Shown: piece by piece, positions 11,695 to 46,507 of the stretch
Position numbering within the stretch: the stretch's first letter is position 1
Layout: each line of letters starts with the position of its first letter
The notes under the pieces: generated by a model
The model's input: only the letters and a program-made list of their open reading frames with translations
Databases searched by the model: none
What the model was told of the DNA's origin: nothing
IMG/VR virus record: IMGVR_UViG_3300030406_002796
Span: 1-52,397 of that record
DNA: 52,397 nucleotides
Reading direction: 5' to 3' (one strand)
Source of the DNA: a virus
Lineage: Duplodnaviria > Caudoviricetes
Position numbers and translations under genes: made by a program

Positions 11695-11938
11695 CGATTA
11701 TGTAATAGTTGATATAATAAAAGAAGGGCCAAAGAAAGTCGGAGGCTTTATATTAACAGATGAAACAGATGAAACAAATAGATATAAAAAAGCTAATATC
11801 ATATCTGTTGGGAATATGGTGGAAGTGGTTAAAGCTGGGGATAGTATATACTATGATGCTATTGCTGGTCATGATATTAGTTATAATGATAGTATGTACA
11901 GGGTAATACGTGCTAGGGATATAGTTATAGTAGAATAA
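11681..11938 (+). CDS. groES: co-chaperonin GroES
   Basis: MKAVNDYVIV...GGFIL...IISVG...VKAGDSIYY...VIRARDI; overlaps groEL end. Confidence 0.9.
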   Translation: MKAVNDYVIVDIIKEGPKKVGGFILTDETDETNRYKKANIISVGNMVEVVKAGDSIYYDAIAGHDISYNDSMYRVIRARDIVIVE

Positions 11939-12828: not shown

Positions 12829-13269
12829 ATGCGATTAACTAGTCACGATTTACGTGATTTACAAATCCTTAAGTATTACAGGCTCGTTAGAAAATGGGCC
12901 TGTAAGACTTACGGGTTAACAGATGCTGATCTTGAATTACTAATTTATTTAGATTGTAAAGGAAGATTTACGCGTCAAGAATTTATCGACGGTACTTACA
13001 CAATGAGTTGGGATAAGAACCGTTGGGAAAAATTAAGGAGGAATGGTTGGATAGAAACGTGGAGACACAGAAATAGAACAACCATCAAATACTCTGTATT
13101 CAAAACCTCCTTTAAGTGTTCACACTTAATAAGTAGAATATATCGTATACTTTTAGGGGAAGAAGATATACCTACTTCAGAAAAGAGTGTGTTTTTTACT
13201 AACCAATCATACACCGATAAGGTCATGAATAAGTCTATCGATGATATGATAAAAGATAATAAACGATGA
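12829..13269 (+). CDS. winged-helix (MarR-like) DNA-binding protein
   Basis: YGLTDADLELLIYLDCKGRFTRQEF...LRRNGWIE resembles MarR/wHTH. Confidence 0.55.
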   Translation: MRLTSHDLRDLQILKYYRLVRKWACKTYGLTDADLELLIYLDCKGRFTRQEFIDGTYTMSWDKNRWEKLRRNGWIETWRHRNRTTIKYSVFKTSFKCSHLISRIYRILLGEEDIPTSEKSVFFTNQSYTDKVMNKSIDDMIKDNKR

Positions 13270-15974: not shown

Positions 15975-16402
15975 TGTATAACCAAAACTTATTTAAGGTT
16001 GTAGAACCTATAAAAATAAATACCATTAAAAGACTTAACAAGTCTAAAAAATGGAAGTATGGTTATGATAAAGAAAATGATATAGTTATTATATCTAAAA
16101 CCGGTATGATCGGCGATATCATAGAAATACAAGGTTTACAAATAGCTTTACCTAAACAACCTAAAGAAATATATAGTTGTAGTAAAATAAAGTCAGAGCA
16201 AAAGTGGAAACAATTTCCAGCTAACTCAGCTTTTAAAAGAATTAAAACTGTATTTGATTGGCAAACATATCCAGATGATTTTAAACAAAGTCATTATGAA
16301 TATATAGACGAAGAGTTTAAAAGAAGAGAAGAAGGTTTTTGGTTTATGAATAATGGCAAGCCAACCTACAGGCACACACTATATGTATTTACAATGGAGT
16401 AA
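15974..16402 (+). CDS. terL: terminase large subunit, N-terminal fragment (frameshifted)
   Basis: ...YIDEEFKRREEGFWFMNNGKPTY continues logically into TGTHYMYLQW in another frame. Confidence 0.7.
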   Translation: MYNQNLFKVVEPIKINTIKRLNKSKKWKYGYDKENDIVIISKTGMIGDIIEIQGLQIALPKQPKEIYSCSKIKSEQKWKQFPANSAFKRIKTVFDWQTYPDDFKQSHYEYIDEEFKRREEGFWFMNNGKPTYRHTLYVFTME

Positions 16403-20612: not shown

Positions 20613-21791
20613 ATGGAAGAACTAAATGAAGAAGTTGTTGAAGAGACAACTGAATCTGTCGATCAGACAGAAGAAAATAACGAACAACCTTTAGAAGAAG
20701 AGGTTGAACAAGTAATAGATAACACTAAGTTTGACAGTGCTGATGATGAAAGTGTATTTAAAGTAGACTTAGACATGCCACCAAAAGCTGAAGATATCGT
20801 AGACGAGCAAGATAACGTAGAACAAGAGGTAGTTGAAGAAGTTTCAGAGCAACCTATAATGGAAGAGGTTACAGAAGAAGAGCCTCAAACGGTTGAACAA
20901 GCTGAAGAAATAATTGAAGAAGCGGTTGAAGAAATGCAAGAGACTGGTCAACCATTACCAGAAAATGTAGAGAAGTTAATAAACTTTATGCAAGAAACTG
21001 GTGGTGATTTAAACGACTATGTACAATTAAACAGAGATGTTTCTAAAATGGATGATTCTGATATACTAGATGAATACTATAGATCAACCAAATCTCATTT
21101 GTCAGCTGAAGAAAGAAACTTTTTATTAGAAGACACCTTTGGTGTTGATGAAGAAATTGACGACGAGAAAACAATACGTAAAAAGAAAATAGCCCTTAAA
21201 GAGCAAGTTGCCGAGGCTAAAGCCTACTTAGACGGGCAAAAGTCTAAATACTATGATGAAATTAAATTAGGGTCAAAGTTGACACCTGAACAGCAAGAAG
21301 CTATTAATTTTTATCATCAATATAATGAAGATCTGAAAAATCAACAGGAAGTATCTGACGCAAGTCAAAGTGCTTTTATTAAACAAACCAATAATGTTTT
21401 TAATAATAACTTCAAAGGTTTTGAATATAATGTTGGAGACAAAGTTTATAGGTTTAATGTTAAAGATGTAGATAAAGTAAAAGAAACTCAAAGTGATCTT
21501 AATAATTTCGTAAACAAGTTTGTTGGCGAAGATGAAACAACTATTAAAGATGCTATAGGTTATCACAAATCTTTATATACAGCTATGAATCCAGATGCTA
21601 TTGCTAAGCATTTTTATGAGCAAGGTAAAGCGGATGCTATAAAAGAAAGAGTTGCTAAAGATAAAAATATTAATTTAGAACCTAGAAAAACACACGGTGA
21701 ATTTAATGCAGGTGGTGTTAAATATAAGGTTGTAGGTCAAAATGCTTCTGACATGAGAAACAGATCTTTTAAGATTAGAAAAAGAAAATAA
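20613..21791 (+). CDS. capsid scaffolding protein (putative)
   Basis: Very acidic N-terminus, position between portal and capsid. Confidence 0.7.
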   Translation: MEELNEEVVEETTESVDQTEENNEQPLEEEVEQVIDNTKFDSADDESVFKVDLDMPPKAEDIVDEQDNVEQEVVEEVSEQPIMEEVTEEEPQTVEQAEEIIEEAVEEMQETGQPLPENVEKLINFMQETGGDLNDYVQLNRDVSKMDDSDILDEYYRSTKSHLSAEERNFLLEDTFGVDEEIDDEKTIRKKKIALKEQVAEAKAYLDGQKSKYYDEIKLGSKLTPEQQEAINFYHQYNEDLKNQQEVSDASQSAFIKQTNNVFNNNFKGFEYNVGDKVYRFNVKDVDKVKETQSDLNNFVNKFVGEDETTIKDAIGYHKSLYTAMNPDAIAKHFYEQGKADAIKERVAKDKNINLEPRKTHGEFNAGGVKYKVVGQNASDMRNRSFKIRKRK

Positions 21792-24516: not shown

Positions 24517-25248
24517 ATGGCTGTAGACATAGATAACGTATATCAAAAAGTATTAGCGCTAGCTAATAAAGAACAAAGAGGCTATATAACTCCGCAAGAA
24601 TTTAATCTATTTGCTGACAAAGCACAAAACGAAATATTCGATAATTACTTTCATGGATTTAAAACTGCACAAAGAAAACCTAGCGATCAAATGCTATATG
24701 CTGATGAGGTTGAAATGCTAGAAGAAAAGCTACACCCTTTCCATGTTGACACAACTGTTAATGTTACAGCTTCTACTTTAACTCTTCCAGAGATTCATAA
24801 AATAATTAGTATTACTAGAGCAAATGGAACTCAACTATCTCAAGTTAATAAAACTCAAATAACATTTACCGAAGGCAATCCTTTAACTAAAGCTGTTTTA
24901 AAAAGATCTGTATTTGTAAGAGAAGATTCAAGCACTGTAACGGTTTATCCACCAGCTTCTTCTGCTACTTATAATGTAGATACAGATGGTAATGGCTCAA
25001 ATGATGCAGAGGGTTTTGAAGTTAGTTATTATAGAGCACCTTCAACTCCTAACTGGTCATATGTAGTTGCCGCAGAAAAAGCTTTATATAATGCTAATGG
25101 TTCAACTAACTTTGAATTACACGTTGGTGAAGAAGAAAATTTAGTATCAAGAATACTTATGTTAGCTGGTGTTACTATACAAAAACCAGAAATACAGCAA
25201 GCTGGTATTCAAGATATACAACTAATGAAACAACAACAAAATAGTTAA
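24517..25248 (+). CDS. head-tail adaptor / tail tubular protein (putative)
   Basis: VYQKVLALANKEQRGYITPQEFNLFA; position in tail module. Confidence 0.6.
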   Translation: MAVDIDNVYQKVLALANKEQRGYITPQEFNLFADKAQNEIFDNYFHGFKTAQRKPSDQMLYADEVEMLEEKLHPFHVDTTVNVTASTLTLPEIHKIISITRANGTQLSQVNKTQITFTEGNPLTKAVLKRSVFVREDSSTVTVYPPASSATYNVDTDGNGSNDAEGFEVSYYRAPSTPNWSYVVAAEKALYNANGSTNFELHVGEEENLVSRILMLAGVTIQKPEIQQAGIQDIQLMKQQQNS

Positions 25249-26160: not shown

Positions 26161-29100
26161 ATGGGAGAAATTAAACATGGTTTTACGGCTGGCAAGATGA
26201 ATAAAGATCTTGATGAGCGATTAGTTCAGCAAGGTGAATATAGAGATGCCATGAATATTCAGGTAAGAACCACATCTGGTGATGGTGATGGTACAGGCAT
26301 TGGTGACTCTGGTGTAGTACAAAACTTACAAGGTAATATTGAAGTTGGCTCTGCTACTGGTGATGTGTTATCTTCGGCTTTTGCAGACTCTGAATTTACT
26401 TGTATAGGTTCTATTGCTAATGAAAAATCAGACTGTGCTTACTTTCTTTTTACTACAGATGTTTTACCTTTAATAACTACAGCAGAAGAATTAGTTAGAA
26501 TTGATACTATAATAGAACATAATGTTTCAAGTGGTGCTAACACACCAGTAGTTGTAGACAGATGGGCGTTAAGAACTTTAACGTCTAATGTATGGAGCTC
26601 AGCACCAACTGGTACTATTACTACATTTGAAGCTATATCTACTCTTCCAGCGAAAATAAGGGAAAACATGACTATCACTTTCTACGATAATGCTAATCCT
26701 ACTGATATTATAACTGTTAAAATAAAAAAGATAGACGGTAACACTATTCACTTATACGAACAAGCTACTGCTACTTGGAGTAACTTTACCCACGCAAGAT
26801 TTCAACACCCAAGAGTTTTAAACTTTTCTAAGAAAACTTTAATAAACGGTATTAATATAATTGATGATTTATTATTTTTTACCGATGGTAAGCATGAACC
26901 TAAAAAAATAAATATTACTAAATGTAAATCAGGCACTGACGCCAGTGGCGTTTTACATACTAAATTACTTATACAAGATCCTACTGTAGATCAATTAACA
27001 AATGCTGGTGATGCAGAACTAGTAGGATTAAATGCTGATTTGCTAGAAGAGCACGTTACCGTATTAAGACCTGCTCCTAAAACACCACCAACTATAGAGA
27101 CTGAAACTAGAGATGACGCTGAGTTACAGTTTAATTTAGATGATTTTTTCGTAGCCAACGGTGATGCAGAAATAAACGCTTGGGGTGAAGATCCATCTGC
27201 TGGCGATATGGTTTTAATAGGGACAAATTTTGATAACGACGGTAACGAAATTACTTACGGCTCTGTCACTCCTAATTTAAGTCAAGTACCTTTTCAAACA
27301 GGTGATATATTTACTGTTACACAAGAAGATGTAGAGGAAGGTTATCCTGAAGTAAATTTTAAAGTTAAATTTTTAGGATATTTTGCTGGATATCCAACCG
27401 CTGAACCTCAAGACGTACCAACAGATTTAATAAAAGTTCAAATATTAACAGAGCCAAACTACAATATAAGTAGTAGCATGCAATCTTGGTCGTTTAAACT
27501 TTCAAGCAAACAAGATTCTAAATTTGAATTAAAGTTTCCAAGGTTTGGTTACAGATATAAATACGATGACGGTGAATACTCTGCGTTTTCACCTTGGTCT
27601 GAATTAGCTTTTGACCCTGGTTTATTTGATTACGATACAGTTAAAGGTTATAACTTAGGTATGGTTAATACCATAAAGAAGATAATAGTAAAAGACTTTA
27701 TACCTTACTATACTGAAAGACCTTTAAATGTTGTAGAGGTTGACTTGTTATATAAGACTACTGAGTCACCAAATATATACACAGTCAAAACAATTAAAAA
27801 AATAAAAGATGGCGAGTGGGAATTATTTACTCCTGATGGTAATTTAGATAGTAATGACTCTACACAAAACTCTTTAGCTACCGGCGCGTTAGAAATAACT
27901 ACAGAGGCTATATACAAAACATTACCTTCAACTCAATTATTAAGAACTTTTGATAATGTACCTAGACGCGCTCTTGCTCAAGAAATAACAGGTAGTAGAA
28001 TATTGTATGGTAATTACACACAAGGGTTTGATATAAAATATCCAGTAGGTTTAGAACAAAATGTTACTAGTGAAACGGTTGAAGGGCAACCTAAAAAATC
28101 TCTTAAGTCTATAAGAGATTACAAAGTAGGTATGGTGTTTGGGGATATATATGGAAGAGAAACTCCAGTTATAGCATCTAATAAGATATCTGAAGTTGCT
28201 AACAATTTAGGTGGAACAGATTACTTAGCGCAAACAGATGATTTAACCGTACCAAAAGAGCTATGTGCAAAGTCTAATAGATTATCAGTAAAGCAAATAT
28301 GGGACAAACCTGGCTTACCTGCTGGAGACCCAACTGAGATGACATGGATGGAATACGTAAAATACTACGTGAAAGAAACATCTAATGAATATTATAATTT
28401 AGTTTTAGATAGATGGTATAAAGCTAAAGAAGAAAATAACATTTGGCTTTCTTTTCCTTCGGCCGATAGAAACAAAGTAGATCTTGAAACCTATTTGTAT
28501 TTAAAAAAGACACATGGTAACGACGAGGCTGTATTAGAAAAAGCTAGATATAAAATAATAGATATAAAAAACGAAGCTCCTGATTTTATAAAAACAGATA
28601 CAAGGAACTTTGGTTTAATAAATATAACAGGTGATCCAACCGCAGATGATTATGAATCCCCAATAGGCGCTGCTGATCCTCAAATAAACGAACCTTCTTT
28701 GCTAACTTCGCCTAGTAATACTAGAATAGCTGTTCCAGGTAATTCATGGAATGGTTTTTTAAATTTATATGGTGAAAATAAAAGAGGGCAATTGTTTGTA
28801 AGAGTAGTTGGTAGAACAGAAAACCCAGCTTCTGGCGCTGTGTTTAAACAATTAAATAGTGGAGACTTTAAAAAAGTTACACACCATTACGTTGATGGTG
28901 CTGGCGACGGTGTTGTTATATACAATGAGTCATTTTTACAATCAGCAGATATGGTTGAAAGATTTGCGCAAGCAAACTTTGATATAGATGGTAACTGTGC
29001 ATCTCAATGTTTACAGTATTTTTTTGAGTTCAAAGAAGAGGTTGTAGAAAACAAACCTGAGTTTGATGGTAGATTCTTTGTGTTAATAGAAAAAGACGAA

Positions 29101-32100
29101 ACCACTCAAGATCAAATAGAAATAACTTCTGATAATGAAGTACAATTTACTGAAATAGATTTAATAACTTTAAATTACGTAGATTCTCAACAATACAACC
29201 CAGCTCAGCAAGGTCCTTATTCTAGACTAGCTACTCCAACAGCTGGTGAACCTTCGGTATATAATGCTACCACTGGTTTGTTTAGAGAAGAAGATGTCGG
29301 TGGTGAGGTGCTAACTGATTTTACTCAACCTCATGAATGGTGGGGATTTGGTAGGTTTTCAAATAATCCTCAGCCATACCCTGGATATTGGAGCGCTTCA
29401 ACTACTAATGCTGTTACATCAAACTATCCTAGTGGAACTCTTGGCGACGCTGGAAATTGGCAATATGATTCTAAACAAGTTCATTTTTTTGCATTAGGTT
29501 GTAGAGCTGCTTCAGAAGGAATGAACGTAGATCTCGATGGTGATGATTACAGTGAGACGACTTATCATTTTGGTTATCAAAATATAACAGCTGGAGATGA
29601 CGGCCAAGCTACAGTTAAATACCCTGGCACAGCTAACTACGGTGGTATCACTTTAGACTACTGGGCCACTTATAAAAGATTTCATAGATCATCAGGTAAT
29701 TACAGCGAAACTGATGACAAGGGTTATGCTAATCCGCATTTAGTATTTTTAGATGGCGCTAGAGCTAATCAATATCAGCTAATGGAATTTGGAACTAACG
29801 AGACTGAAACTAACGAACAAGGTGTTCAGTCTATAAATGATTCAAATATAATATTAAGTAACGATAGTATAGCTGAAGGTGGTATATACCCTACTGATGG
29901 TAGTTACCCGTATGCTCCTTCTATATACAACTATAAGCCAACAGCGTTAGATCAAGGGCATGCCGACGAAGGTACTTTAGGTAGAATGGCTTTAAGTAAA
30001 ATAGGTGATTGGGGAGTTGGCGCAGGTGGTAGTGGCGCGCCCGCTATATATAATTATTTTGCTGGAGCTTCTGCAGCTGGTACTTACTTTTCTTTTAAAG
30101 ATGATAAATCTGATATGTCTGATCCAGACTTTCCAGATGGCAAACCTTATGTTTATAAAGTAATTACAGTTCACCCTGATGACGATGAAATTAGTTTACC
30201 GGTTCAAAAATCAAAACCACTAGCTAATAGAAACTTTGGTTATCAATTCAACCATGGTCAGTACGATGATAGCGACTCTGGTTGTGATAATAACGGTGGC
30301 GTTAACTTTGTAAGAAGTAGACAGTGGGCGCCAACTACTAGCGTTCCTAATGATGATGGCGCTTACTTTTTAAACTTTGGTGGAGAAAATGCTAATTGCG
30401 TAGATGAAGAAGGTAATGAAGTTAACTGTTTTGAAGGACTGTATAGTAACTTTGCTTTATCAGAAATATTCGACTTTGAAACGCTTGATAGTACTACACA
30501 TATTAGAACTGGTATGTATAGGAATACAGGGGGATTTTGCAATAATAGATTTCATAGAATATGCGGTCAATGTGACTCATCTGTTTCAACTGGTCCTTAT
30601 GAAAGTGGAACTGTATGTAGAAGAGAGTCTATAAGATTTGAATTTAGAAGAATAAACCCAGTAACTGGAGGTGTAACAAATGAAGGTATAGTACCAGATG
30701 AGTTTGATCCAAGAGGTTGGGCTAAGCACGATGGAACACATGGTGGTATAAGAATATCAATATTACAACCTGGTGTAGTAGCTGGTGGTAAAGAAGTTAA
30801 AATCGAAGAAGATAGAGCTGTTTGGGAAACAGAACCAAAAGAAGATGTTGGCTTAGATTTATATTATGAGGCTACGCACGCTATACCAATGAAATTAAAA
30901 AAAGGTAATGTATTATCTTACGCTCCTTTAAAATCTAAAGTTTTAGTAGAAAGAGTTGATCCAGCTACAGGCGTTACGGTTATAGATAATCTTAATGTAG
31001 CTAATTATAATGGTCAGCAGTATGTAGATGTTAGTGTAGGCGGGGCAGAGTATTTACAAGACGATGTTATAATAAAAGTTGTATCAAGAAGCGTCACGCT
31101 TATAGACTTGAATGGTAATGCGGACTTTGGGTTACACCAATACAATATAGGTATAGGTGATATACTTATATTCCAGCATAGCAGTGGCATGCAAACAAGA
31201 ACTGTAGTCGAAGACTATTATGTAGCACCAACTGGTGGTGAGAACTGTACATATGTTCCACAAACTACTTACACTACTACGTTTACTTACGACGCTGATG
31301 CTGATACTATATCACTAGCAAATGCTACAAATATTGTAACAGGTATGAACATTAGTGGTGAAGGTTTACCTGATGGTTTATTTGTATCAGGTAATCCTAA
31401 TGGAACTGAAATTCAAGTTGTTGGGTGGCCAACGTCAGCATTCTCTTGGTTTGGAGGTAATAGTAGCACACTTAGTAATATAGAATTTAAAAGCCCTACG
31501 GGCTATTATAAAGTAAATAAAGATGTTTACAAATACAAAGTTGATCTTGGCTGGCATAATTGTTATTCATTTGGTAATGGAGTTGAGTCTGATAGAATAA
31601 GAGATGATTTTAACGCACCAACAATCGATAATGGTGTTAAAGTTTCTACTACTATAGATGAGTATGGAGAAGAAAACAGAACAAGTGGTTTGATATTTTC
31701 AGGTTTATATAATACTACATCTGGAGTAAATGATTTAAATGAGTTTAATATGGGTGAAAAAATAATTAAGGATTTAAACCCGGACTATGGTACTATACAA
31801 GCTTTAAAAACTAGAGATACTAATGTTGTTGTTTTTTGTGAAGATAAAATATTAAAAGTAATTGCTAATAAAGAAGCTGTGTTTTTAGCAGATGGTAACC
31901 CTCAATTAACCGCTACTGATAGAGTGTTAGGTCAAGTGTCTACATTCTTAGGTGATTACGGTATATCAAGAAATCCAGAATCATTAGCTAAAGATAATTA
32001 TAGATTATATTGCACTGACTCACAAAGAGGCGCGGTACTTAGAATATCAATGGACGGTATAACACCTATATCAAATGTTGGTATGAGAACTTGGTTTAGA

Positions 32101-32814
32101 GAAAATATAGTAGGTTCTAGTGGGTATGGCACTCAAATGATAGGAACTTTTGATATGGTAAAAGGTGAATATAACTTAGGTATTAGTAACCAAACAATGG
32201 TAGCATTTAACGAAGGTTCTAAAGGTTGGGTTAGTTTTAGATCTTTTATACCAGATCAAGGAGTATCAGTTTCTGGAAAATACTTAACAACTAAAAGAGG
32301 TAAAATTTATAAACACCACGTGGACACTTTTGATCCAGATACTGGAGAAATAAATAATAGAAATTTATTTTATGGCGCTACTACTTTAGAGCCTGAAGCT
32401 GAATCTACAATTACCGTAATGTTTAATGATGTACCTGGCCAGGTTAAGTCTTTTAAAGCTATGAACTATGAAGGCACACAGGCTAGAGTAGATCAATTTA
32501 TATCTGAAACAATAGATGGTTTATCTTATACAGATGGCGAGTATTATAACTTAATTAATAAAAAAGGCTGGTGGGTAAGTGATGTCAATACAGATTTACA
32601 AGAAGGTAAAATAACTTGGTTTATTGATAAAGAAAACAAATGGTTTAATAATATTAGCGGTGTCGCTACTTCGCTTGAAAATTTAGATACTAGTGAGTTT
32701 ACAGTGCAAGGTATCGGTAGCCCTACATTAGTAACACTACCTCCTCCTACTGATGGGGATCCTACTAACACGTTTACTCTAACTATAAAGAATAAAACAA
32801 ATAATGATTTATAA
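26161..32814 (+). CDS. large tail protein (stabilization/nozzle-like)
   Basis: 2217 aa; GKMNKDLDERL...GEYRDAMNI N-terminus, CYSFGNGVESDRIRDDFN, YGISRNPES, KGWVSF. Confidence 0.7.
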   Translation: MGEIKHGFTAGKMNKDLDERLVQQGEYRDAMNIQVRTTSGDGDGTGIGDSGVVQNLQGNIEVGSATGDVLSSAFADSEFTCIGSIANEKSDCAYFLFTTDVLPLITTAEELVRIDTIIEHNVSSGANTPVVVDRWALRTLTSNVWSSAPTGTITTFEAISTLPAKIRENMTITFYDNANPTDIITVKIKKIDGNTIHLYEQATATWSNFTHARFQHPRVLNFSKKTLINGINIIDDLLFFTDGKHEPKKINITKCKSGTDASGVLHTKLLIQDPTVDQLTNAGDAELVGLNADLLEEHVTVLRPAPKTPPTIETETRDDAELQFNLDDFFVANGDAEINAWGEDPSAGDMVLIGTNFDNDGNEITYGSVTPNLSQVPFQTGDIFTVTQEDVEEGYPEVNFKVKFLGYFAGYPTAEPQDVPTDLIKVQILTEPNYNISSSMQSWSFKLSSKQDSKFELKFPRFGYRYKYDDGEYSAFSPWSELAFDPGLFDYDTVKGYNLGMVNTIKKIIVKDFIPYYTERPLNVVEVDLLYKTTESPNIYTVKTIKKIKDGEWELFTPDGNLDSNDSTQNSLATGALEITTEAIYKTLPSTQLLRTFDNVPRRALAQEITGSRILYGNYTQGFDIKYPVGLEQNVTSETVEGQPKKSLKSIRDYKVGMVFGDIYGRETPVIASNKISEVANNLGGTDYLAQTDDLTVPKELCAKSNRLSVKQIWDKPGLPAGDPTEMTWMEYVKYYVKETSNEYYNLVLDRWYKAKEENNIWLSFPSADRNKVDLETYLYLKKTHGNDEAVLEKARYKIIDIKNEAPDFIKTDTRNFGLINITGDPTADDYESPIGAADPQINEPSLLTSPSNTRIAVPGNSWNGFLNLYGENKRGQLFVRVVGRTENPASGAVFKQLNSGDFKKVTHHYVDGAGDGVVIYNESFLQSADMVERFAQANFDIDGNCASQCLQYFFEFKEEVVENKPEFDGRFFVLIEKDETTQDQIEITSDNEVQFTEIDLITLNYVDSQQYNPAQQGPYSRLATPTAGEPSVYNATTGLFREEDVGGEVLTDFTQPHEWWGFGRFSNNPQPYPGYWSASTTNAVTSNYPSGTLGDAGNWQYDSKQVHFFALGCRAASEGMNVDLDGDDYSETTYHFGYQNITAGDDGQATVKYPGTANYGGITLDYWATYKRFHRSSGNYSETDDKGYANPHLVFLDGARANQYQLMEFGTNETETNEQGVQSINDSNIILSNDSIAEGGIYPTDGSYPYAPSIYNYKPTALDQGHADEGTLGRMALSKIGDWGVGAGGSGAPAIYNYFAGASAAGTYFSFKDDKSDMSDPDFPDGKPYVYKVITVHPDDDEISLPVQKSKPLANRNFGYQFNHGQYDDSDSGCDNNGGVNFVRSRQWAPTTSVPNDDGAYFLNFGGENANCVDEEGNEVNCFEGLYSNFALSEIFDFETLDSTTHIRTGMYRNTGGFCNNRFHRICGQCDSSVSTGPYESGTVCRRESIRFEFRRINPVTGGVTNEGIVPDEFDPRGWAKHDGTHGGIRISILQPGVVAGGKEVKIEEDRAVWETEPKEDVGLDLYYEATHAIPMKLKKGNVLSYAPLKSKVLVERVDPATGVTVIDNLNVANYNGQQYVDVSVGGAEYLQDDVIIKVVSRSVTLIDLNGNADFGLHQYNIGIGDILIFQHSSGMQTRTVVEDYYVAPTGGENCTYVPQTTYTTTFTYDADADTISLANATNIVTGMNISGEGLPDGLFVSGNPNGTEIQVVGWPTSAFSWFGGNSSTLSNIEFKSPTGYYKVNKDVYKYKVDLGWHNCYSFGNGVESDRIRDDFNAPTIDNGVKVSTTIDEYGEENRTSGLIFSGLYNTTSGVNDLNEFNMGEKIIKDLNPDYGTIQALKTRDTNVVVFCEDKILKVIANKEAVFLADGNPQLTATDRVLGQVSTFLGDYGISRNPESLAKDNYRLYCTDSQRGAVLRISMDGITPISNVGMRTWFRENIVGSSGYGTQMIGTFDMVKGEYNLGISNQTMVAFNEGSKGWVSFRSFIPDQGVSVSGKYLTTKRGKIYKHHVDTFDPDTGEINNRNLFYGATTLEPEAESTITVMFNDVPGQVKSFKAMNYEGTQARVDQFISETIDGLSYTDGEYYNLINKKGWWVSDVNTDLQEGKITWFIDKENKWFNNISGVATSLENLDTSEFTVQGIGSPTLVTLPPPTDGDPTNTFTLTIKNKTNNDL

Positions 32815-38473: not shown

Positions 38474-41400
38474 ATGAAAGAATATATATTAAATGGAAAG
38501 ACTGTAAAAGTCTCTTCAGAAAACGAACAAGCATTTATTAAAGCAAATCCTAATGCTAAAATAAAGGAAACAAGCTGGTGGCGAGGAGAAGAAGGTTGGA
38601 TTCCAGATGAACTAGAGTTCTGGAAAAGAAAAGAGGAGTCGCCGGGAAAGTCAATAGGGGCAAGTCAGCCCCAAGAAAATCAAACAGAAAATACGGATTC
38701 ATCTTCGGCAACTGGTTTGTTGGGGTTTGTAAAATATAAACTTGGTGAAAAGTTTGTTAAGGTAGCTCCTGCTAATACTAAAGCATTTGAAAAGGAAAAT
38801 CCAGAAGCTACGCAAGCAACCTTTCAAAAAGGAACTATATTAGATAAAATAACAGATGATAAAGATACTATACCACAAGATAAAGGTTATCTTTCAGAAT
38901 TAGTATTATCATTAAAGCAAGGTAAAAGAGGTTTAACTACTGATGGCGCCTTTGATTTAATGCGTCATGGTAAAAATATAACTGACGAAAAGTTACAAGA
39001 GTGGGTTAGAGATGTAGAAAAATATGGTGGCGTGCCACAAACTCAAGCTCAAATAGAATATAATAGAAAACTAGAAGAGAATGGTGGTGGAATATGGGGT
39101 CACATAAAAGTAATGAGTGATCCTAGAAATACGATGTTAAGTTTAGAGTGGGTACCTCAACAAATACTAGGTTCTCTATCTACTATGGCTACGTCTCTTT
39201 ATGGATCTGATGAAGTAAGAGTTTCTGCGGCTGGTGGTGCAGGAGCGGGTGCTGTGGCTACAAGAAGTCCTTATGGCGGTGTAGCTGGTGCTTATAGTGC
39301 TGGTATAGGTGCTATGGAAGCAGGTCTAGAATTTACTGAGTTATTAAAAGAAGAGTTAGCTGAAAAGGGTGTAGATCCAAATGATTATGATAATGGTTTT
39401 ACAGCTGACAATATTAGATCTTTGATATTAGAAGATCCAGCTTCTTTAGAAAAAATTAGAAAAAAAGCTCTAGCAAGAGGTATGTCTATGGCGGTAGTAG
39501 AAGCTATGACGTTTGGCGTAGCGAGAGGTACTGGTAAATTAGTGTTAGATAAAACAATGTCTAAAAGTAAAACAGCGCTTGCTGTTACTGGAACAGAGAT
39601 GGTTGGTGGTGCTGCTAGTGAAGCCGCTGGACAATTTGCGTCTGGAGGTACAGCAGAGCCTGGCGGGTTTAGTGTTCAAAAAGGTATTGAAAACTTAGAT
39701 AGTGGAGATATTTTTATTGAAGGTATATTAGAAGGGCCAACAGCTGTTTTAAATACTGACATATTATTTTCTGGATCAAGAGGTGAAAAGTATACTATTA
39801 ATGGAAGTGAGGTAACTAAAAAAAGAGTTGTTAGCATACTTCAAGATAATGATCTTACAACTCAAGAAAAAGCAAAAATTCTTTCTAATATAGAAATAAC
39901 TAACGATAAAACTCTACAGTCTTATTTAGATAAAGCTTTAAGTGATATAAATATAGAAATGAATATAGACGCTAGAGTTGTTGATAGAGCTGATAGAAAA
40001 CGTTTGGTTGAGCTAGAAAATCAAAGAAGAAAAGCAGAAGCTGATACTAAAAAAACTGGAGTGTTTTCTGTTTCAGATGCAGATAAAAAACTAAATGATA
40101 TAAATTTAGCTATAGAAGAAATACTAGCTCCATATCAAAATCAAATAGATAAAAATCTTTCAGATGTACAAATACAAAGAGATCAAGCAGCTGAGTTTAA
40201 TCAGAACATGTCCGAAAGAATTTTTAAAAGTAATTTAGAGTTTGCTAAAAAACATAGTGCCTTGTATGGTTTAAATGTAAATGATACTTTAACTAGAGAG
40301 GAAATACGTAAAGCCTATGGAGATGAGGCTGCTGATGCAGATGGATTTATTGATGGTGATCAAATAATTATAAATAGCGAGGTAGCTCAGTTTACAGATG
40401 CTGTTAATGTTGGTAACCACGAGTTGTTGCATGGTATACTTAGAAAAGAAATGAAGAACAACCCAAACCAATTTGCCAATATAAGGCAAGAGTTGTCTCA
40501 ACAAATAGGTAATCAATGGCAGTATGTAGAAAACAGAGTTAAAGAAGCTGGATATACAGAGCAGTATATGATAGAAAATCCTGATGAGTGGATTACGTTA
40601 ACTTCAGATGCTATAGCTAACGGTCAGATAACCTATAGTGAAAGTGTGTTCCAACCATTAATGGATTTTATTTTACCTATACTTAGGGCTGCTGGATTTA
40701 AGAAAATAAAGTTTGATAGTGGTAAAGATGTATTTGAGTTCTTAAAAGAATACAATAGAAGTATACACAAGGGCTCGCTGAGTAGTGGTATAGTTAGTGC
40801 TACACAAGGAGTAACGCAAGTTGAAGGAGGACCTAAGTTTGCTAAGTCTAATTTAGCTGGTATGTTAGATCGATTTGATGGTAACACTAGACGTATGATA
40901 AATCAAACTGTTGCTAGACAAGCTAATGGCGAACCAGTTGCGTTTAGAGAAGATAAATTTGGTAATTATATATCTAGTGTAGATTCAGAATTTGGACAAG
41001 AAGTAATGCCTATAGTTGAAAGTATAACAAAAAGATTATTTGATCCTATACCTACTAACATAGCAGATCAAGCCTCTGTATCAAGAGGTAGTTATCAATC
41101 AGATTTAGTAAATGAAGCTGCTACGTTAGTTAACAACGAGTATAATGGTAGACAACCACTTGATCAATTTGTTAGTAACAGATTAAATTTAAGAGCTCAA
41201 AGTTTAGCTCGTAGATTAGGTATAAAATCTGTAGAAGAAAGTTCTAAAGAAACAAGAATAAATCAAGGAGACTCTCAGCTACAAGTACAAGATAGAGACC
41301 AAACAGATACAGCGTTTGAAGAAAAAGATCTTTCACCACAACAGCAACGTAAAGATTTAAAAGAAGATACTAGACAAATAAACTCAGGTGAGTTTGTTAA

Positions 41401-44400
41401 AGATATATATATGTTTGACAACGAAACAACCATTGAGCCTTTGCGACAAACATTAAACGAAATTAATTACGACGCTAGCGGTTCTTACGAGCAGTTAGCT
41501 GCTGATATGGTTAGTCAACAAAACCCAGCAGAAAGTTCTAAAAACAAAGTTAAACCTACTGGTGTTTTATATCCCGCTCATAAATTACTATCAGAGTCTT
41601 ATTGGCAAGTTAATCCTAATTCTATAATAGCTAAACCTCAAACTCTAACGGTTCCAGAGTCTAATAATATTAGAACAAAAATAATAGAAGCTATAAAAAA
41701 TACTAGAACAAAAAAAGGTTTATCACCGGTAAAAAGAGTTGTAAGCGCTATATTACCAAAAACTAATTTAAATCCTAACACATTAACTTCTATAGGGCTA
41801 AGCACTAAAACATTAGAAGTATTTTATTTAGACAGAAATATAGAAACTGGTGAAACAACTAGACCTAAAAATTTAAAAGCTCAAGCGCTTAATATAAATA
41901 ACATGGCTGACTCTGATATACTAATGAACATTGGTATTACAAATGAGTTAACATTAATGCCTCATGATAGAAAATTTAATCCTATATTAAAAAGTTTTGT
42001 AAAGCAAGGTAATGCTTTAGTTATAAATCAAGAGATAAGAAGCTTAATAAAAGATCAAGCCGCTAACATTGGTGTTGGTAGACCAGATATATTATTTAGT
42101 AAGAGTGTTAAAAATTCTTATAGAAAAAGTCCTGCTGATTTAGCTAATGATTATAATATAAAATTAGTACCTGGTTCTTCTAAAACAAGAGCCAAAAACA
42201 GTATGTACAACGAAACCGAAACTTGGGCGCAGGCTAGAGACAGAGTGCTTAGAGAGTATTTAACCGAGTACCCTCAGTACAGAGTATTAATGCAAAAAGG
42301 TCTATGTGCTAGTAGTAAAAGAACTATGTATACTAGCGTTAAAGAGTTTAATGAAGCTGCTGGCCCTATGCCACCAGGTGTTGATATTATTAACGCTCTT
42401 AAAACTGAATATAATGTTAAAAGAAGGTTTACTCCAAAAGCTTTTAAAAAATTTAAAACAGAAAAATTTAAACAAGGTGAGGCAAAAAAATTAGAAACTT
42501 TGAAAGATTTTTTTGTGTCAATACAAGAATTTTCAGAGTCTAAAAAAATTGATGGAAAAGTAAGCCCTGATATGTTTTTGTTTTTAGAAATGTTAAGAGA
42601 TAGTTCGACTGGTGGCCAGGCTCATATTATTAGAATATTAGCTCCAGTTAAATTCTATACAGTTGACCAAAGAACTAGAAAACCAATATACGATAAAGAG
42701 GTTGTAGAAGAACATACTGATCCTCAAAATCAAATAGGTACAGCTTTAATGGACGCTGCTATAAACGGAAATGTAAACGAAGTGTTTGATGTTATAGGTG
42801 GTTCTTATATGCAAGGTTCTTTATTAGAAACGTCTGACAACTTGATAGCTAACAAAGAGAAAAACCCTAACAAAAGAGATTTAACTAGAGATATGCCAGA
42901 TTTTTATTTTGATGAGGTAATACCTAGAATAAAAAGTGGTGAACTAAAGTTACCAGATGGTATGGCATCTGTAGTTAGGATGGCGATACAAGGTGTAAAC
43001 TTAAATGAGCTAATGCTTATTGATTCTAATCAAACTATAGCAGAGTTTTTTAATGTTGGTATTGATACTAAAAATATGACTGATGCTCAAATAGAATATT
43101 TAATACCTTATCAAAATGACTTAATAATAAAACAGTTGACTACTAAAACGATGACCAAAACAAAGGCTCGTAATTCTATAAATAAAATATCTAAAACAGT
43201 TTACAAAAAAAATGCTAAACAACTACAATCTAGTTTAGATTCAAGTAAAGCTATTATTAATACATATAAATATAGTAAGTCTGGTAAAACAAGAGGTATG
43301 TCAACATTTGATTTTGATGATACATTAGGTTTTACTAAGTCTGGTGTTAGAGCTAATATACCTAACAACGATGGTCTACCTAAACCAGAGCGTAAAGTTA
43401 TATTCTTAGCTGGTGGTGCTGGTAGTGGTAAAGGTAACGTAATAAGAAAACTTAATTTAGAAAAAGACGGTTTTAAAATTGTAAACTCAGATATATCTTT
43501 AGAGTGGTTAAAGAAAAACTCAGGACTACCTGCTGATATGCGAGACTTAACTAAAGAACAAAGAAGCACATTAGGTAAGCTAGGAGCTCAAGCTAGAAAA
43601 ATAGCTAGAGGTAAAATGATGAAGTACCAGGGTAACGCAAATGGAGTTGTTGTCGATGGTACTGGTGGATCTGTTAGAACAATGCAGAAGTTAGTAGATG
43701 AATTTAAATCTAAGGGATATGATGTTAGCATGATATTTGTAGATACATCATTAGATGTAGCCTTACAACGTAACAGGGCTAGACAAGAAAGATCGTTGTT
43801 AGATAAAATAGTTATACGTAATCATGAAGCTGTTCAAGGAAATAAATCTTCTTTTAAAGAAATGTTTGGCGATAGATTTATGGAAGTTAATACAGATAAC
43901 TTAACGCAACAAAGCCCCATGCCGACTGATTTAGTTAACAATGTTACTGACTTTGTTTCTGGTTATGAAAGACGTAGATTAGATGCTGAAGAGTTTGCCG
44001 CAGAAGGAGATGCTATATTAGAACAAGGTGGTGAGTTTGATTTTTCAGAGTTTAATGATGTTGTTGACGGAACGCCAGGTCCTTTACTAGAAAAAGCTAG
44101 ACAAAGGGCAGCTAAGTATGGAACGAAAGACATGTTTGTTTTAACTGCTAGACCTCAAGCTGCCGCACCAGCGATAAAACAATTTTTAAAATCACAAGGT
44201 CTAGATATACCATTAAAAAATATAACTGGCTTAGCTAACAGCTCTGGTAATGCTAAGGCTCAATGGATGTTAGGTAAATTTGCAGAAGGCTATAACGATA
44301 TGTACTTTGTAGATGATGCTTTACAAAATGTTGAAGCCGTTAAACAGGTGTTAGATCAATTAGATATTAAGTCAGATGTTGTGCAAGCTAAAAGAAAGTT

Positions 44401-46507
44401 TAGTAAATCAGCTAGTCAAAACTTTAATACAATACTAGAAGAGTCTCAAGGGACTAACAGGAACAGAACGTTCTCTTATCAAGAAGCTAAACGTTTAGGT
44501 AAAAACAAAGGTTGGTGGAGAATATTTGTACCACCTTCGGCTGAAGACTATAAAGGTTTATTGTATAGATTTTTAGGTACAGGTCGTCAAGGTGAGTTAC
44601 ACATGAAGTATTTAAAAATTAAACTGCTAGACCCGTTTGCTAAAGGTATAAGATCGTGGAATATATATAAGCAAGAGATGGTAAATGAATATGCTCAATT
44701 AAAAAAGAATCTACCTAACGTTGCTAAAGGTTTAACCGCTAAAGTAGGTGAGACTGGTTTTACTACAGATGACGCAATAAGAGTTTACTTGTGGGATAAA
44801 AACGGATTTAATATTCCAGGTATTGATGATGCTACAAAACAAGAGCTAATTGATTTTGTAAACAGATACGGTAACGTTAAAGCTTTTGCTGATACTTTAA
44901 GTAGAATAACTAAGACACAAGAAGGTTATGTTGCACCAACTGAAAACTGGTCACTTGGTAGTATATCAACTGATTTAAATAATGTCGTTAACAAAGTTGG
45001 TAGAAAACAATTTTTAGCAGAGTACTTAGCTAATTCAGAAGCTATATTTACTCCTGAAAATATGAATAAGATAGAGGCTTTATATGGTACTACATTTAGA
45101 GAAGCTTTAGAGAATATAATGTATCGTATGGAAAACGGTGGTAACAGAAGAGTTAGTACTGATAGAAATGTAAATAGAATGCTTAATTGGATTAACGGTT
45201 CTATTGGCGCTATTATGTTTTTTAACATGAGATCTGCATTACTACAAACTATATCTACGGTTAACTTTATAAACTGGAGTGATAATAATATATTTAAAGC
45301 ATCAGCCGCATTTGCTAATCAACCTCAATTTTGGACGGACTTTGCTACACTATTTAACTCACCACAATTAAAACAAAGAAGAAAAGGTATACAAATAGAT
45401 GTATCTGCTTCAGAATTATCTAGAGCTTTTTCTGATGGTAAAGGCACACCTCAATCTGTTATTAGCTGGTTATTAGAAAAAGGTTTCACCCCAACACAAG
45501 TTGCGGATAGCTTTGCTATTTCTTTTGGTGGCGCTAGTTTTTATAGAAACAGACTTAACAAATATAAAAAACAAGGATTTTCAGAGCAACAAGCTAATGA
45601 AAAGGCTATGTTAGATTTTCAAGAGATAGCTGAAGAAACACAACAGTCTTCAAGAGAAGATTTAATATCACAGCAACAGGCTAGTGTATTAGGTAGATTA
45701 ATACTAGCGTTTCAAAACGTTACAATGCAATACACTCGTTTAACAAAGAAAGCTTTATCTGATTTAATAAATGGTAGGGGGGATATGAAAACAAATATAT
45801 CTAAGATACTATATTATGGTATGGTACAAAATTTAATATTTGCTAGCTTACAATCGGCCTTGGCATTTGTTATTTGGGGAGACGATCAAGAAGACATAGA
45901 AGATAAAACTCTTAGAACAGCTAATAGCGCTTTAGATTCTTTTTTACGTGGTACTGGTATATACGGAGCAATAGTATCTACTGTAAAAAATACTATTATA
46001 CAGGCTGAAAAACAAAAGAAGAAAAGCTGGGGTAGAGAAGATGGTAGAACTTTATTAGAGTTAACTAATATATCTCCACCTATAGGTAGTAAGTTAAGAA
46101 AAATATACAACGCTATTAAAACAGAGCAGTATAACAAAGGTGTATCTGAAGAATTAGGACTTAGAATAGAAAACCCAACATTACATAAATGGGCTAGTAT
46201 AATTGAAGCAACTACAAATATACCAACACAAAGATTAATTAAGAAAGCTAATAACTTAGAAGAAGCTATAACAGGCAATCACTTAACATGGCAACGAATA
46301 GCCTTAGGTCTTGGCTGGAATAGATGGGATATTGGTGTTAAGGACGAAGAGCTTGAAGCTGCTAAAAGTGCCGCTAAGTCTAAAAATAAAAGTAATAAGA
46401 AAAGCAATAAGTCTAGTAGTAAAAGATGCTCTGCTATAAAGAAAAGTGGTGGAAGATGTAAGAACAATACTAGAAATAAAAGCGGTAGATGTTATGCTCA
46501 CCAATAA
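38474..46507 (+). CDS. giant polyvalent virion protein (zincin, sigma-like, HAD phosphatase with nested P-loop kinase, C-terminal Zn finger)
   Basis: HELLH (aa 649), FDFDDTL (aa ~1613), GGAGSGKG (aa ~1647), LTAR, FVDD, terminal C-x9-C-x10-C-x2-H. Confidence 0.75.
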   Translation: MKEYILNGKTVKVSSENEQAFIKANPNAKIKETSWWRGEEGWIPDELEFWKRKEESPGKSIGASQPQENQTENTDSSSATGLLGFVKYKLGEKFVKVAPANTKAFEKENPEATQATFQKGTILDKITDDKDTIPQDKGYLSELVLSLKQGKRGLTTDGAFDLMRHGKNITDEKLQEWVRDVEKYGGVPQTQAQIEYNRKLEENGGGIWGHIKVMSDPRNTMLSLEWVPQQILGSLSTMATSLYGSDEVRVSAAGGAGAGAVATRSPYGGVAGAYSAGIGAMEAGLEFTELLKEELAEKGVDPNDYDNGFTADNIRSLILEDPASLEKIRKKALARGMSMAVVEAMTFGVARGTGKLVLDKTMSKSKTALAVTGTEMVGGAASEAAGQFASGGTAEPGGFSVQKGIENLDSGDIFIEGILEGPTAVLNTDILFSGSRGEKYTINGSEVTKKRVVSILQDNDLTTQEKAKILSNIEITNDKTLQSYLDKALSDINIEMNIDARVVDRADRKRLVELENQRRKAEADTKKTGVFSVSDADKKLNDINLAIEEILAPYQNQIDKNLSDVQIQRDQAAEFNQNMSERIFKSNLEFAKKHSALYGLNVNDTLTREEIRKAYGDEAADADGFIDGDQIIINSEVAQFTDAVNVGNHELLHGILRKEMKNNPNQFANIRQELSQQIGNQWQYVENRVKEAGYTEQYMIENPDEWITLTSDAIANGQITYSESVFQPLMDFILPILRAAGFKKIKFDSGKDVFEFLKEYNRSIHKGSLSSGIVSATQGVTQVEGGPKFAKSNLAGMLDRFDGNTRRMINQTVARQANGEPVAFREDKFGNYISSVDSEFGQEVMPIVESITKRLFDPIPTNIADQASVSRGSYQSDLVNEAATLVNNEYNGRQPLDQFVSNRLNLRAQSLARRLGIKSVEESSKETRINQGDSQLQVQDRDQTDTAFEEKDLSPQQQRKDLKEDTRQINSGEFVKDIYMFDNETTIEPLRQTLNEINYDASGSYEQLAADMVSQQNPAESSKNKVKPTGVLYPAHKLLSESYWQVNPNSIIAKPQTLTVPESNNIRTKIIEAIKNTRTKKGLSPVKRVVSAILPKTNLNPNTLTSIGLSTKTLEVFYLDRNIETGETTRPKNLKAQALNINNMADSDILMNIGITNELTLMPHDRKFNPILKSFVKQGNALVINQEIRSLIKDQAANIGVGRPDILFSKSVKNSYRKSPADLANDYNIKLVPGSSKTRAKNSMYNETETWAQARDRVLREYLTEYPQYRVLMQKGLCASSKRTMYTSVKEFNEAAGPMPPGVDIINALKTEYNVKRRFTPKAFKKFKTEKFKQGEAKKLETLKDFFVSIQEFSESKKIDGKVSPDMFLFLEMLRDSSTGGQAHIIRILAPVKFYTVDQRTRKPIYDKEVVEEHTDPQNQIGTALMDAAINGNVNEVFDVIGGSYMQGSLLETSDNLIANKEKNPNKRDLTRDMPDFYFDEVIPRIKSGELKLPDGMASVVRMAIQGVNLNELMLIDSNQTIAEFFNVGIDTKNMTDAQIEYLIPYQNDLIIKQLTTKTMTKTKARNSINKISKTVYKKNAKQLQSSLDSSKAIINTYKYSKSGKTRGMSTFDFDDTLGFTKSGVRANIPNNDGLPKPERKVIFLAGGAGSGKGNVIRKLNLEKDGFKIVNSDISLEWLKKNSGLPADMRDLTKEQRSTLGKLGAQARKIARGKMMKYQGNANGVVVDGTGGSVRTMQKLVDEFKSKGYDVSMIFVDTSLDVALQRNRARQERSLLDKIVIRNHEAVQGNKSSFKEMFGDRFMEVNTDNLTQQSPMPTDLVNNVTDFVSGYERRRLDAEEFAAEGDAILEQGGEFDFSEFNDVVDGTPGPLLEKARQRAAKYGTKDMFVLTARPQAAAPAIKQFLKSQGLDIPLKNITGLANSSGNAKAQWMLGKFAEGYNDMYFVDDALQNVEAVKQVLDQLDIKSDVVQAKRKFSKSASQNFNTILEESQGTNRNRTFSYQEAKRLGKNKGWWRIFVPPSAEDYKGLLYRFLGTGRQGELHMKYLKIKLLDPFAKGIRSWNIYKQEMVNEYAQLKKNLPNVAKGLTAKVGETGFTTDDAIRVYLWDKNGFNIPGIDDATKQELIDFVNRYGNVKAFADTLSRITKTQEGYVAPTENWSLGSISTDLNNVVNKVGRKQFLAEYLANSEAIFTPENMNKIEALYGTTFREALENIMYRMENGGNRRVSTDRNVNRMLNWINGSIGAIMFFNMRSALLQTISTVNFINWSDNNIFKASAAFANQPQFWTDFATLFNSPQLKQRRKGIQIDVSASELSRAFSDGKGTPQSVISWLLEKGFTPTQVADSFAISFGGASFYRNRLNKYKKQGFSEQQANEKAMLDFQEIAEETQQSSREDLISQQQASVLGRLILAFQNVTMQYTRLTKKALSDLINGRGDMKTNISKILYYGMVQNLIFASLQSALAFVIWGDDQEDIEDKTLRTANSALDSFLRGTGIYGAIVSTVKNTIIQAEKQKKKSWGREDGRTLLELTNISPPIGSKLRKIYNAIKTEQYNKGVSEELGLRIENPTLHKWASIIEATTNIPTQRLIKKANNLEEAITGNHLTWQRIALGLGWNRWDIGVKDEELEAAKSAAKSKNKSNKKSNKSSSKRCSAIKKSGGRCKNNTRNKSGRCYAHQ

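Follow-up and report, generated by a model that had tools for sequence, protein, structure and literature searches.

The giant open reading frame (ORF) described here raises the question of whether a single phage polypeptide may cut itself into separate enzymes. The window is the whole 52,397-nucleotide stretch that was analysed, a virus record (IMGVR_UViG_3300030406_002796), for which the best explanation of origin is an uncultured marine podophage related to Flavobacteriia phages. The giant ORF (P0001, 38474..46507; on the + strand, as are all its parts given below) encodes a polyvalent protein of 2677 amino acids (aa) 3' of the structural genes, in the gene order terminase, portal, capsid-type, adaptor, 2217-aa virion protein, giant ORF and endolysin-like gene. 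From gene order only, we infer that the giant protein is carried in the virion and enters the host together with the DNA. The nearest GenBank phage is MW202828.1, whose terminase is 67% identical and whose syntenic giant is unrelated in sequence to that of the window. The modules, a motif repeated between them, and an adjoining metal-protease domain suggest self-cutting. A sequence-only reading had proposed that a peptidase in the protein cuts at such motifs after ejection and releases three effector cassettes, and this overall interpretation is partly supported by the analysis.

The modules appear to follow one another as a conserved N-terminal region, a zincin-like metallopeptidase, two cassettes, a Pnkp-like kinase/HAD-phosphatase cassette, and a conserved 700-aa C-terminal domain. 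A zincin-like module, a P-loop kinase, an HAD phosphatase and at least two further folded modules are thus combined, which is the mark of polyvalent proteins, large phage proteins with several unrelated enzymatic domains. The N-terminal region (aa 1-436, 38474..39781) is overlapped by a match to PHROG 32588 that spans aa 143-561, and the protein has a short xYxLNGxxV motif at aa 3, 87, and 439. The C-terminal domain (aa 1980-2677, 44411..46504) is conserved and all-helical, with a CCCH motif at its end (nt 46427-46501). A metagenomic search gave 2,138 relatives of the giant among 8,000 candidates scored; 198 metagenomic proteins served as relatives, and 199 giants entered the all-vs-all BLAST. 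The whole protein, compared by tblastn with 50,697 phage records, matched 9 records in the kinase part only, and PDB sequence and profile searches with the whole protein, the zincin alignment and the C-terminal alignment gave no useful match.

Four copies of the pattern [FY][AS]KS lie along the protein: J1 (FAKS, aa 789-792, 40838..40849), J2 (FSKS, aa 1208-1211, 42095..42106), J3 (YSKS, aa 1600-1603, 43271..43282), and J4 (FSKS, aa 1976-1979, 44399..44410). These sites and the HELLH at aa 649, all named in the sequence-only reading, are present in the 2677-aa ORF; the spacing, put there at about 380-420 aa, measures 419, 392, and 376 aa, and the HAD motif DFDDT (aa 1613-1617) and the P-loop GGAGSGKG (aa 1647-1654) do lie between the last two sites, which had been said to bracket an HAD/kinase unit. 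The composition of the giant protein predicts 0.16 such sites against the 4 observed, and none of 5000 residue shuffles gives at least 4, a post hoc test, since the pattern itself had been derived from these data. The enrichment is backed by two independent checks, namely absence from the other ORFs of the window and recurrence in relatives. Even the looser pattern [FYWLM][AS]KS is found 0 times in the other 46 window ORFs (about 13,350 aa). The flanks of the four sites have nothing in common outside the motif. Two further candidate sites, MSKS at aa 362 and FSGS at aa 432, were dropped, being unconserved as motifs in relatives.

Had the motifs fallen inside folded domains, a role as cut sites would have been difficult to maintain; in the AlphaFold models all four occupy low- or moderate-confidence segments between domains. 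J1 stands in the low-confidence linker aa 760-839, within blocks of pLDDT 55-62. The F of J2 ends a segment of pLDDT<50 (aa 1198-1209, model residues 759-770), and J4 comes directly past a hinge of pLDDT<50 (aa 1972-1976, model residues 413-417). J3, 9 residues ahead of the first HAD strand, falls below pLDDT 50 in one model; in the other it has 66-72 and lies where a predicted helix ends. At J2 and J4 a helix starts at or adjoining the motif in the models. Short conserved sites in exposed linkers between domains are the arrangement expected of a self-cleaving polyprotein, conservation being partial in distant relatives. Autoproteolysis of the Nup98/PIDD HFS type, which we took to be a candidate for the motif sites, was set aside, as the sites lack a His at -1 and are not surrounded by a conserved fold.

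The sites delimit three cassettes. Cassette A (aa 793-1207, 40850..42094) had been labelled sigma-like, a label that found no HMM support: PF04542 (Sigma70_r2) and PF08281 (Sigma70_r4_2) match no part of the window at E<=10, and what is left are weak leads, one ESM Atlas row at rank 22 (score 0.92) among otherwise unnamed viral clusters and two BFVD rows with probabilities of 0.38 and 0.35. Searched alone, this cassette returned only TnpV from Pfam (E 0.082) and no match among phage records at E<=5. Cassette B (aa 1212-1599, 42107..43270) is confidently folded with a conserved EHxxP motif (EEHTDP, aa 1412-1417); ESM Atlas gave nothing for it, and a Pfam search with 57 modules upstream of the HAD showed no common family.

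The last cassette (aa 1604-1975, 43283..44398) is, by its predicted fold, a Pnkp-like kinase/HAD phosphatase, in which a P-loop kinase (1647-1654) is inserted into an HAD phosphatase (DFDDT, 1613-1617). Pfam matches are AAA_33 (7.4e-10) and Zeta_toxin (2.4e-8), and Foldseek matches are 4xrp_A (E 1.8e-4), 4gp6_B (TMt 0.74) and 1ltq, with zeta-toxin-type kinases also matching (3q8x_B). The predicted fold and the DFDDT sequence supply the P-loop polynucleotide kinase fold and the DxDxT HAD phosphatase of the T4 type. T4 polynucleotide kinase/phosphatase and bacterial Pnkp likewise combine the two domains; their kinase is N-terminal and their phosphatase C-terminal, whereas here the kinase sits between HAD motif I (1613) and the remainder of the HAD (about 1835-1971), and the whole unit forms part of a giant protein. 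In distant relatives the HAD is present but the kinase is missing. When stand-alone HAD/kinase proteins were searched for, most of the matches were short-contig fragments, and no free-standing cassettes were demonstrated. No break interrupts the giant reading frame in 77 of the 79 loci. A split-gene test was of little help: an in-frame TGA in L052 lies distant from any junction motif, and L076 has a frameshift six residues past a QFSKN motif, a single case that may be an assembly error.

Comparison of homologs shows where modules have been exchanged. In the relatives the motif extends to [IV][KQM][FY][SA][KR][STN], and in the window protein every module boundary downstream of the peptidase has it in a flexible linker. 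In 79 loci, giants totalling 233,202 aa contain exact FSKS 28 times, whereas 254,689 aa of the other + strand ORFs at the same loci contain it 2 times. In the query, the high-scoring segment pairs (HSPs) end at aa 1211-1213 (10), 792 (4) and 773-778 (10), and start at aa 1975-1976 (6). All-vs-all BLAST of the 199 giants gave HSP ends that cluster most densely at +1, +2, and +3 from the motif F (73, 129, and 179, compared with about 18 per upstream position); 731 ends fall within 0..+8 of that residue, whereas 100 trials of random placement averaged 96 and never exceeded 135. Through the motif, the zincin flank cluster is joined to at least 10 different downstream clusters and at least 7 different clusters precede the HAD cluster; altogether the motif stands between 101 different pairs of unrelated flank clusters. 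Finally, 86% of 405 motif instances fall at a homology breakpoint as against 17-47% for six control patterns. The check on domain swaps at FSKS motifs that had been proposed with the sequence-only reading is therefore clearly positive, by HSP ends, cluster pairs and breakpoint coincidence alike.

For the Ser that follows F/Y, AGY codons were counted 58 times and TCN codons 38 times; the 96 instances comprise 60 distinct 12-mers. Both Ser codon families are in use, and therefore selection acts on the protein; this codon diversity led us to reject a DNA-level recombination signal at the motifs. The objection that the motifs might be unconserved is not borne out, as they are kept at the amino-acid level in closer relatives, though only partially in distant ones. 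At the aligned position, [FY][SA][KR] is found in 36 of 110 relatives for J1, 41 of 76 for J2, 71 of 142 for J3, and 146 of 196 for J4, and the strict motif lies within -25..+90 residues after the zincin module in only 43 of 148 modules. The motif itself is real, selected at the protein level, and placed exactly at the module-exchange points of about 200 relatives. That its recurrence might be chance or plain shared ancestry, devoid of function, is hardly credible. The pattern was set after the sequence had been seen and many relatives are close kin, but the shuffles never reach the count, the flanks come in 101 combinations, and the coincidence with breakpoints is far above the controls.

The candidate enzyme for cutting at these sites is the metallopeptidase module (aa 437-788, 39782..40837), which is confidently folded over aa 440-759 (AF2). 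Across 45 peptidase modules at 22% mean identity, the only invariant columns are H649, E650 and H653 of the HELLH (aa 649-653, 40418..40432) and E705 (40586..40588), which is likely the third zinc ligand of an HExxH...E arrangement. The HExxH is carried on a helix (model residues 207-223) and, together with the invariant downstream Glu, agrees with what is expected of a zincin; in the model three strands (model residues 162-164, 185-188, and 191-194) come before this helix. As judged from the alignment, the module keeps exactly the HExxH...E residues that serve zincins in catalysis and zinc binding. The MPTase region of N4 vRNAP is the closest characterised relative found, with an hhalign probability of 89.9% (E 1.7e-6) over 71 columns that cover the strands and the HExxH helix. 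Foldseek with the 1181-residue model of aa 440-1620 gave no PDB match at E<=0.001 and, in BFVD, family members and weak rows only. PF18818 (MPTase-PolyVal) had no match in the window at E<=10, and Pfam searches with the 45 zincin modules named M78 (7), M4 (3), and M90 (3), all below threshold with a best E of 0.0026.

We put at about even the chances that the motifs are processing sites cut in cis by this peptidase, freeing the cassettes. A zincin domain is detected in 171 of 181 full-size giants, and prohead-protease families were not found in the 93%-complete record; the near-universal zincin without such a family was counted in favour of in-cis cleavage. Zincins of the thermolysin type accommodate an aromatic residue in the S1' pocket, and the putative cut would probably fall just ahead of the aromatic residue of the motif, which would fill that pocket. 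About five products would result (aa 1-788, 789-1207, 1208-1599, 1600-1975, and 1976-2677), and cutting, either in the capsid or after ejection, would let each cassette act alone. A complex prediction that paired the zincin module (325 residues) with a 43-residue J4 peptide scored 0.00 (mark 0.32), which weighs neither way on binding.

A more specific link between enzyme and site comes from the motif variants. The M-x-S-K form occurs in 16 of 19 proteins with HEF[IV]H zincins compared with 0 of 139 with other HExxH types, and proteins in which J4 is M-x-S-K-[IV] have an M/L-x-S-K-like J3 too; the link between zincin type and motif type is inseparable from shared ancestry, with only 4 independent pairs (p about 0.25). 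We tentatively propose, as an idea with somewhat less than even prospects, that the zincin and a junction code of six residues evolve together, HEF[IV]H being matched to M-x-S-K and other HExxH types to [FY]-S-K. Such a system would amount to plug-and-play delivery, in which any cassette placed between two motifs would be released as a free enzyme in the infected cell.

Another reading, which we regard as rather improbable, is that the motifs are cleaved by some other protease: one of the host, a capsid maturation protease that went unrecognised, or the small protein with HEMKH at 7593-7952. The HEMKH ORF is the second HExxH in the window, with sub-threshold matches to Peptidase_M91 (E 0.0012) and SprT-like (0.031), and ORFs adjoining the portal, among them 20613-21791, have no assigned function. 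Ten of the 181 full-size giants have no detectable zincin, and 5 of these 10 still have a canonical J4. Against an outside protease, the prohead-protease families S78, S77, and ClpP have no match in the window, and a Pfam scan of 36 other ORFs gave no peptidase match that reached the family cut-off. Capsid, portal and other proteins are usually cut as well by a maturation protease; the motif is missing from capsid, portal and the other ORFs. Almost all giants, moreover, have the zincin, and zincin type goes along with motif type.

A stronger, if still unlikely, competitor is that the motif is never cut. It would then be a docking or structural element (for packaging, a chaperone or as a helix cap) or the remnant N-termini of once-separate genes, kept since recombined modules stay functional with it, and the zincin would be an effector aimed at host proteins or an aid to encapsidation as in N4. 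Passages of PMC5512222 lend this reading two precedents: N4 vRNAP is packaged unprocessed, with the MPTase-containing region required for encapsidation, and plasmid ArdC and TraC1 are transferred full length. It is also favoured by the helix that begins at or adjoining the motif at J2 and J4, by the resemblance of the M-x-S-K variant to a protein start, and by the unbroken giant frame in 77/79 loci. However, a helix cap or fusion scar leaves unexplained the six positions selected at the amino-acid level, the use of both Ser codon families amid otherwise unrelated flanks, and the joint change of J3 and J4 type in the same proteins, and the flanks of the four window sites are alike in the motif only.

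Autoprocessing by the zincin-like peptidases of polyvalent proteins was proposed in passages of Iyer et al. (2017, PMC5512222). It has been a prediction since 2017 without a known site as far as our literature search shows: the available text of PMC5512222 describes no conserved junction motif ('cleavage site' appears only in a reference title and 'linker' is absent), and no paper was found with 'FSKS' and 'phage'. A conserved and precisely placed junction motif makes the prediction directly testable. If cleavage in cis is true, the motif would give a rule to delimit effector cassettes in thousands of metagenomic phage proteins and would supply a naturally paired protease and site for releasing proteins in modular fashion. 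If it is false, the motif remains a marker of how modules recombine in this very abundant marine phage protein family.

MARTX toxins, with their internal cysteine protease domain, and the polyproteins of RNA viruses each unite in one polypeptide an internal protease, sites in linkers and effectors that vary between strains. By analogy, the giant protein would follow the same logic, with putative cleavage by a protease of another class (a zincin), at a different site and in a different host system, that of a phage. Nearer at hand are the polyvalent proteins with an MPTase treated in PMC5512222, such as N4 vRNAP (gp50), which are likewise giant with conserved termini and enzymatic cargo between. 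The N4 region that is similar in profile to the HExxH...E domain of the giant protein is aa 2130-2448; N4 vRNAP has an RNA polymerase, whereas the window giant has none and its cargo is the Pnkp-like unit with cassettes A and B. N4 gp50 is reported in the same source to be packaged uncut, which speaks against cleavage in cis. DdrB of phage P1 (darA operon), likened here by description, is virion-associated with a C-terminal MPTase and, as that paper states, was found by experiment to be processed before packaging, a precedent for the proposed cutting; it differs in giving one product of ~76 kDa, without a cassette series and with no site motif given there. The giant protein is a variant of this known polyvalent-protein theme with a candidate site that can be tested.

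The giant protein, the 2,677-aa product of an ORF at 38474-46507 (+), lies 3' of the tail and structural genes. The sequence-only reading had placed an HELLH motif at aa 649 and four [FY][AS]KS motifs, J1 to J4, at aa 789 (FAKS), 1208 (FSKS), 1600 (YSKS) and 1976 (FSKS), and all were found at exactly the nucleotides claimed. From composition, 0.16 [FY][AS]KS sites are expected versus the four seen, and none of 5000 shuffles reached four or more in a post hoc test. A looser form of the pattern has no occurrence in the 46 other ORFs of the window (~13,350 aa).

Relatives were collected by a word-indexed search with aa 560-2050, in which 2,138 of 8,000 scored candidates passed E ≤ 0.001. The family is modular, since the 120 relatives listed align to between 14% and 100% of the query. 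In IMG/VR, 79 loci turned up in a scan; for 77 of these, the frame that matches is a single uninterrupted ORF (949-3,874 aa, with some truncated by the contig end). The giant frame of locus L076 has a frameshift six residues past a QFSKN junction motif (about 13100-13123), and that of locus L052 has one in-frame TGA at 12992-12994, away from any motif; both could be assembly errors. Among cultured phages (a collection of 50,697 records), the kinase part alone is matched, in nine records. The nearest GenBank phage (locus L081; MW202828.1, 741-12320) encodes a syntenic protein of 3,859 aa, unrelated in sequence to the giant, which contains the HEFGH motif twice and bears the annotation 'reticulocyte binding/rhoptry protein'.

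The expectation that homologs swap modules at the motifs was borne out, as both alignment boundaries and flank combinations change there. Against 119 relatives, query HSPs end at aa 1211-1213 (10), 792 (4) and 773-778 (10), and start at aa 1975-1976 (6). When 199 giants (giant proteins of this family) were compared all against all by BLAST, with positions counted from the aromatic residue of the motif, HSP ends were most frequent at +1, +2 and +3 (73, 129 and 179, with ~18 at each upstream position). Within 0 to +8 there are 731 ends versus a mean of 96 and a maximum of 135 in 100 random placements, and within -8 to +4 there are 907 starts versus 269 (maximum 342). A breakpoint is touched by 86% of 405 motif instances; for six control patterns, made by permutation or alteration, the figure is 17-47%. 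The 145-residue motif flanks cluster into 62 upstream and 78 downstream groups in 101 combinations; in the 60 of these 101 cluster pairs from which neighbors were counted, the zincin flank cluster has at least 10 different modules after it and the HAD flank cluster at least seven before it.

The consensus of 137 dereplicated contexts is [IV] at -2 and [KQM] at -1, then [FY][SA][KR][STN], with a Gly/Thr/Pro-rich upstream side and nothing conserved downstream. Conserved serine codons are mixed (AGY 58, TCN 38) and the four sites of the window are four different 12-mers, so selection acts on the protein; a DNA recombination signal as the basis of the motif is rejected on the same observations. 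Conservation among relatives is partial, [FY][SA][KR] standing at the aligned position in 36/110 for J1, 41/76 for J2, 71/142 for J3 and 146/196 for J4. The strict motif follows only 43 of 148 zincin modules, and many of the remaining modules have near variants (e.g., FSKP, FSQ, MSKS, KSVSV).

A location inside folded domains had been named as a point against cleavage. Two AlphaFold2 models, built on alignments of the loci, cover aa 440-1620 (mean pLDDT 82.2) and aa 1560-2677 (74.2), and in them all four motifs are predicted to lie outside confidently folded domains. J1 (model residues 350-353) falls in blocks of pLDDT 44-68 beyond the zincin module, whose fold is confident (residues 1-320), and the phenylalanine of J2 (residue 769) is within a <50 segment (759-770) at the onset of a helix (767-777). 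J3 is below 50 at the tail of the first model and at a helix end of 66-72 in the second, while J4 (residues 417-420) follows a <50 hinge (413-417) and opens a helix (417-433). The main rival to self-processing, in which the motif would be an uncut junction or docking element and the zincin would have its role elsewhere, we consider rather unlikely.

For self-processing, the candidate peptidase is the zincin module (aa 437-788), present after iteration in 175 of 199 giants and 171 of 181 full-size ones. The only invariant columns in 45 such modules (22% mean identity) are H649, E650, H653 and E705, which are the HExxH...E signature described in PMC5512222 for zincin-like metallopeptidase-type (MPTase) domains of polyvalent proteins. 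The HExxH helix is preceded by three strands in the AlphaFold2 model. Pfam matches of the 45 modules are all sub-threshold and mostly to zincin families (M78 7/45, M4 3/45, M90 3/45), PF18818 gives no match, and the module profile matches that of N4 vRNAP aa 2130-2448 (nine sequences) at 89.9% probability. A short motif, xYxLNGxxV(K/T), has three copies in the N-terminal part (38480-38500, 38732-38752 and 39788-39805), the third of which (KYTING) is kept in relatives directly before the zincin module.

Cleavage of the junction motifs by a protease other than the zincin seems to us distinctly improbable. No S78, S77 or ClpP-type protease was found in the record, and a Pfam scan of 36 other ORFs gave no peptidase match at or above the family cut-off. 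The sole other HExxH in an ORF of at least 80 aa is HEMKH, in a 119-aa ORF at 7593-7952 (+) with sub-threshold zincin-type matches (Peptidase_M91, 0.0012; SprT-like, 0.031). In a subset of giants, J3 and J4 are both changed to an M-x-S-K type, seen in 16 of 19 proteins with a HEF[IV]H zincin versus none of the 139 whose HExxH is of another type (11/11 versus 3/132 when dereplicated). Motif-type labels need four changes on the C-terminal-domain tree and three on the zincin tree. Zincin type may thus go with motif type, a link that is suggestive and no test because there are just four independent pairs (p about 0.25).

As had been read from the sequence, J3 and J4 bracket a HAD phosphatase with an inserted P-loop kinase (43283-44398; the Pnkp-like cassette, aa 1604-1975), for which Foldseek matches are Pnkp1, T4 PNK, the Pnkp kinase of C. 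thermocellum (TMt 0.74) and, besides these, zeta toxins. In distant relatives (loci L029-L040) this HAD carries a small cap and lacks the kinase, so the conserved C-terminal unit begins at ~aa 1835, not at J4. No family could be assigned to cassettes A (aa 793-1207) and B (aa 1212-1599), and a sigma-like segment proposed after J1 was not upheld, Sigma-70 HMMs giving no match. Across 57 diverse giants, the modules that stand before the HAD (mean identity 12%) have no Pfam family in common and show EHxxP as majority consensus, found in the window at 42707-42724 (aa 1412-1417); an EHxxP-like pattern occurs in 38 of 56 locus modules (loci L001-L078). These modules may, as a guess, be His-Me-finger-type nucleases. 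A C-terminal motif, C-x9-RC-x10-C-x2-H (46427-46501), which the consensus of 78 sequences retains, may be a zinc knuckle.

The record is linear, 52,397 bases from a single IMG/VR virus, with 93% completeness estimated by CheckV. It encodes GroEL (10129-11694, +; PHROG 5725, E 1.2e-135) and GroES (11681-11938, +; Cpn10, E 3.8e-11), a pair also present in the nearest GenBank relative, as well as a large terminase (16353-18203), a portal (18200-20578) and an endolysin-like gene. The terminase matches phage records of Flavobacterium (68), Cellulophaga (15), Tenacibaculum (2) and Maribacter (1) and one unclassified record, 87 in all, with 67% identity to the best. Among the virion structural proteins is one of 2,217 aa (26161-32814, +; PHROG 14478, E 8e-113) that weakly matches the C-terminal domain of the crassvirus muzzle (E 0.0069). 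Together with a protein resembling the SU10 adaptor (24517-25248, +; E 2.3e-5), it hints at a podovirus tail of the crass or SU10 kind. A 3'-open ORF at 1-543 (-) has an ATP-dependent DNA ligase domain (E 9.6e-15; RNA ligase match weak) and, with the Pnkp-like cassette, would make an end-healing and sealing pair as in T4.

In the main full texts available without subscription, no paper pairs 'FSKS' with 'phage', and none describes a motif at the junctions or cleavage sites of polyvalent proteins. The best-supported reading is a self-processing polyvalent protein with the junction motifs as candidate cut sites. We regard it as about evenly balanced because all the steps that lead from a junction motif to its cleavage are ones that we infer, and also because the known systems differ: PMC5512222 reports N4 vRNAP as packaged without being cut, and P1 DdrB as cut.
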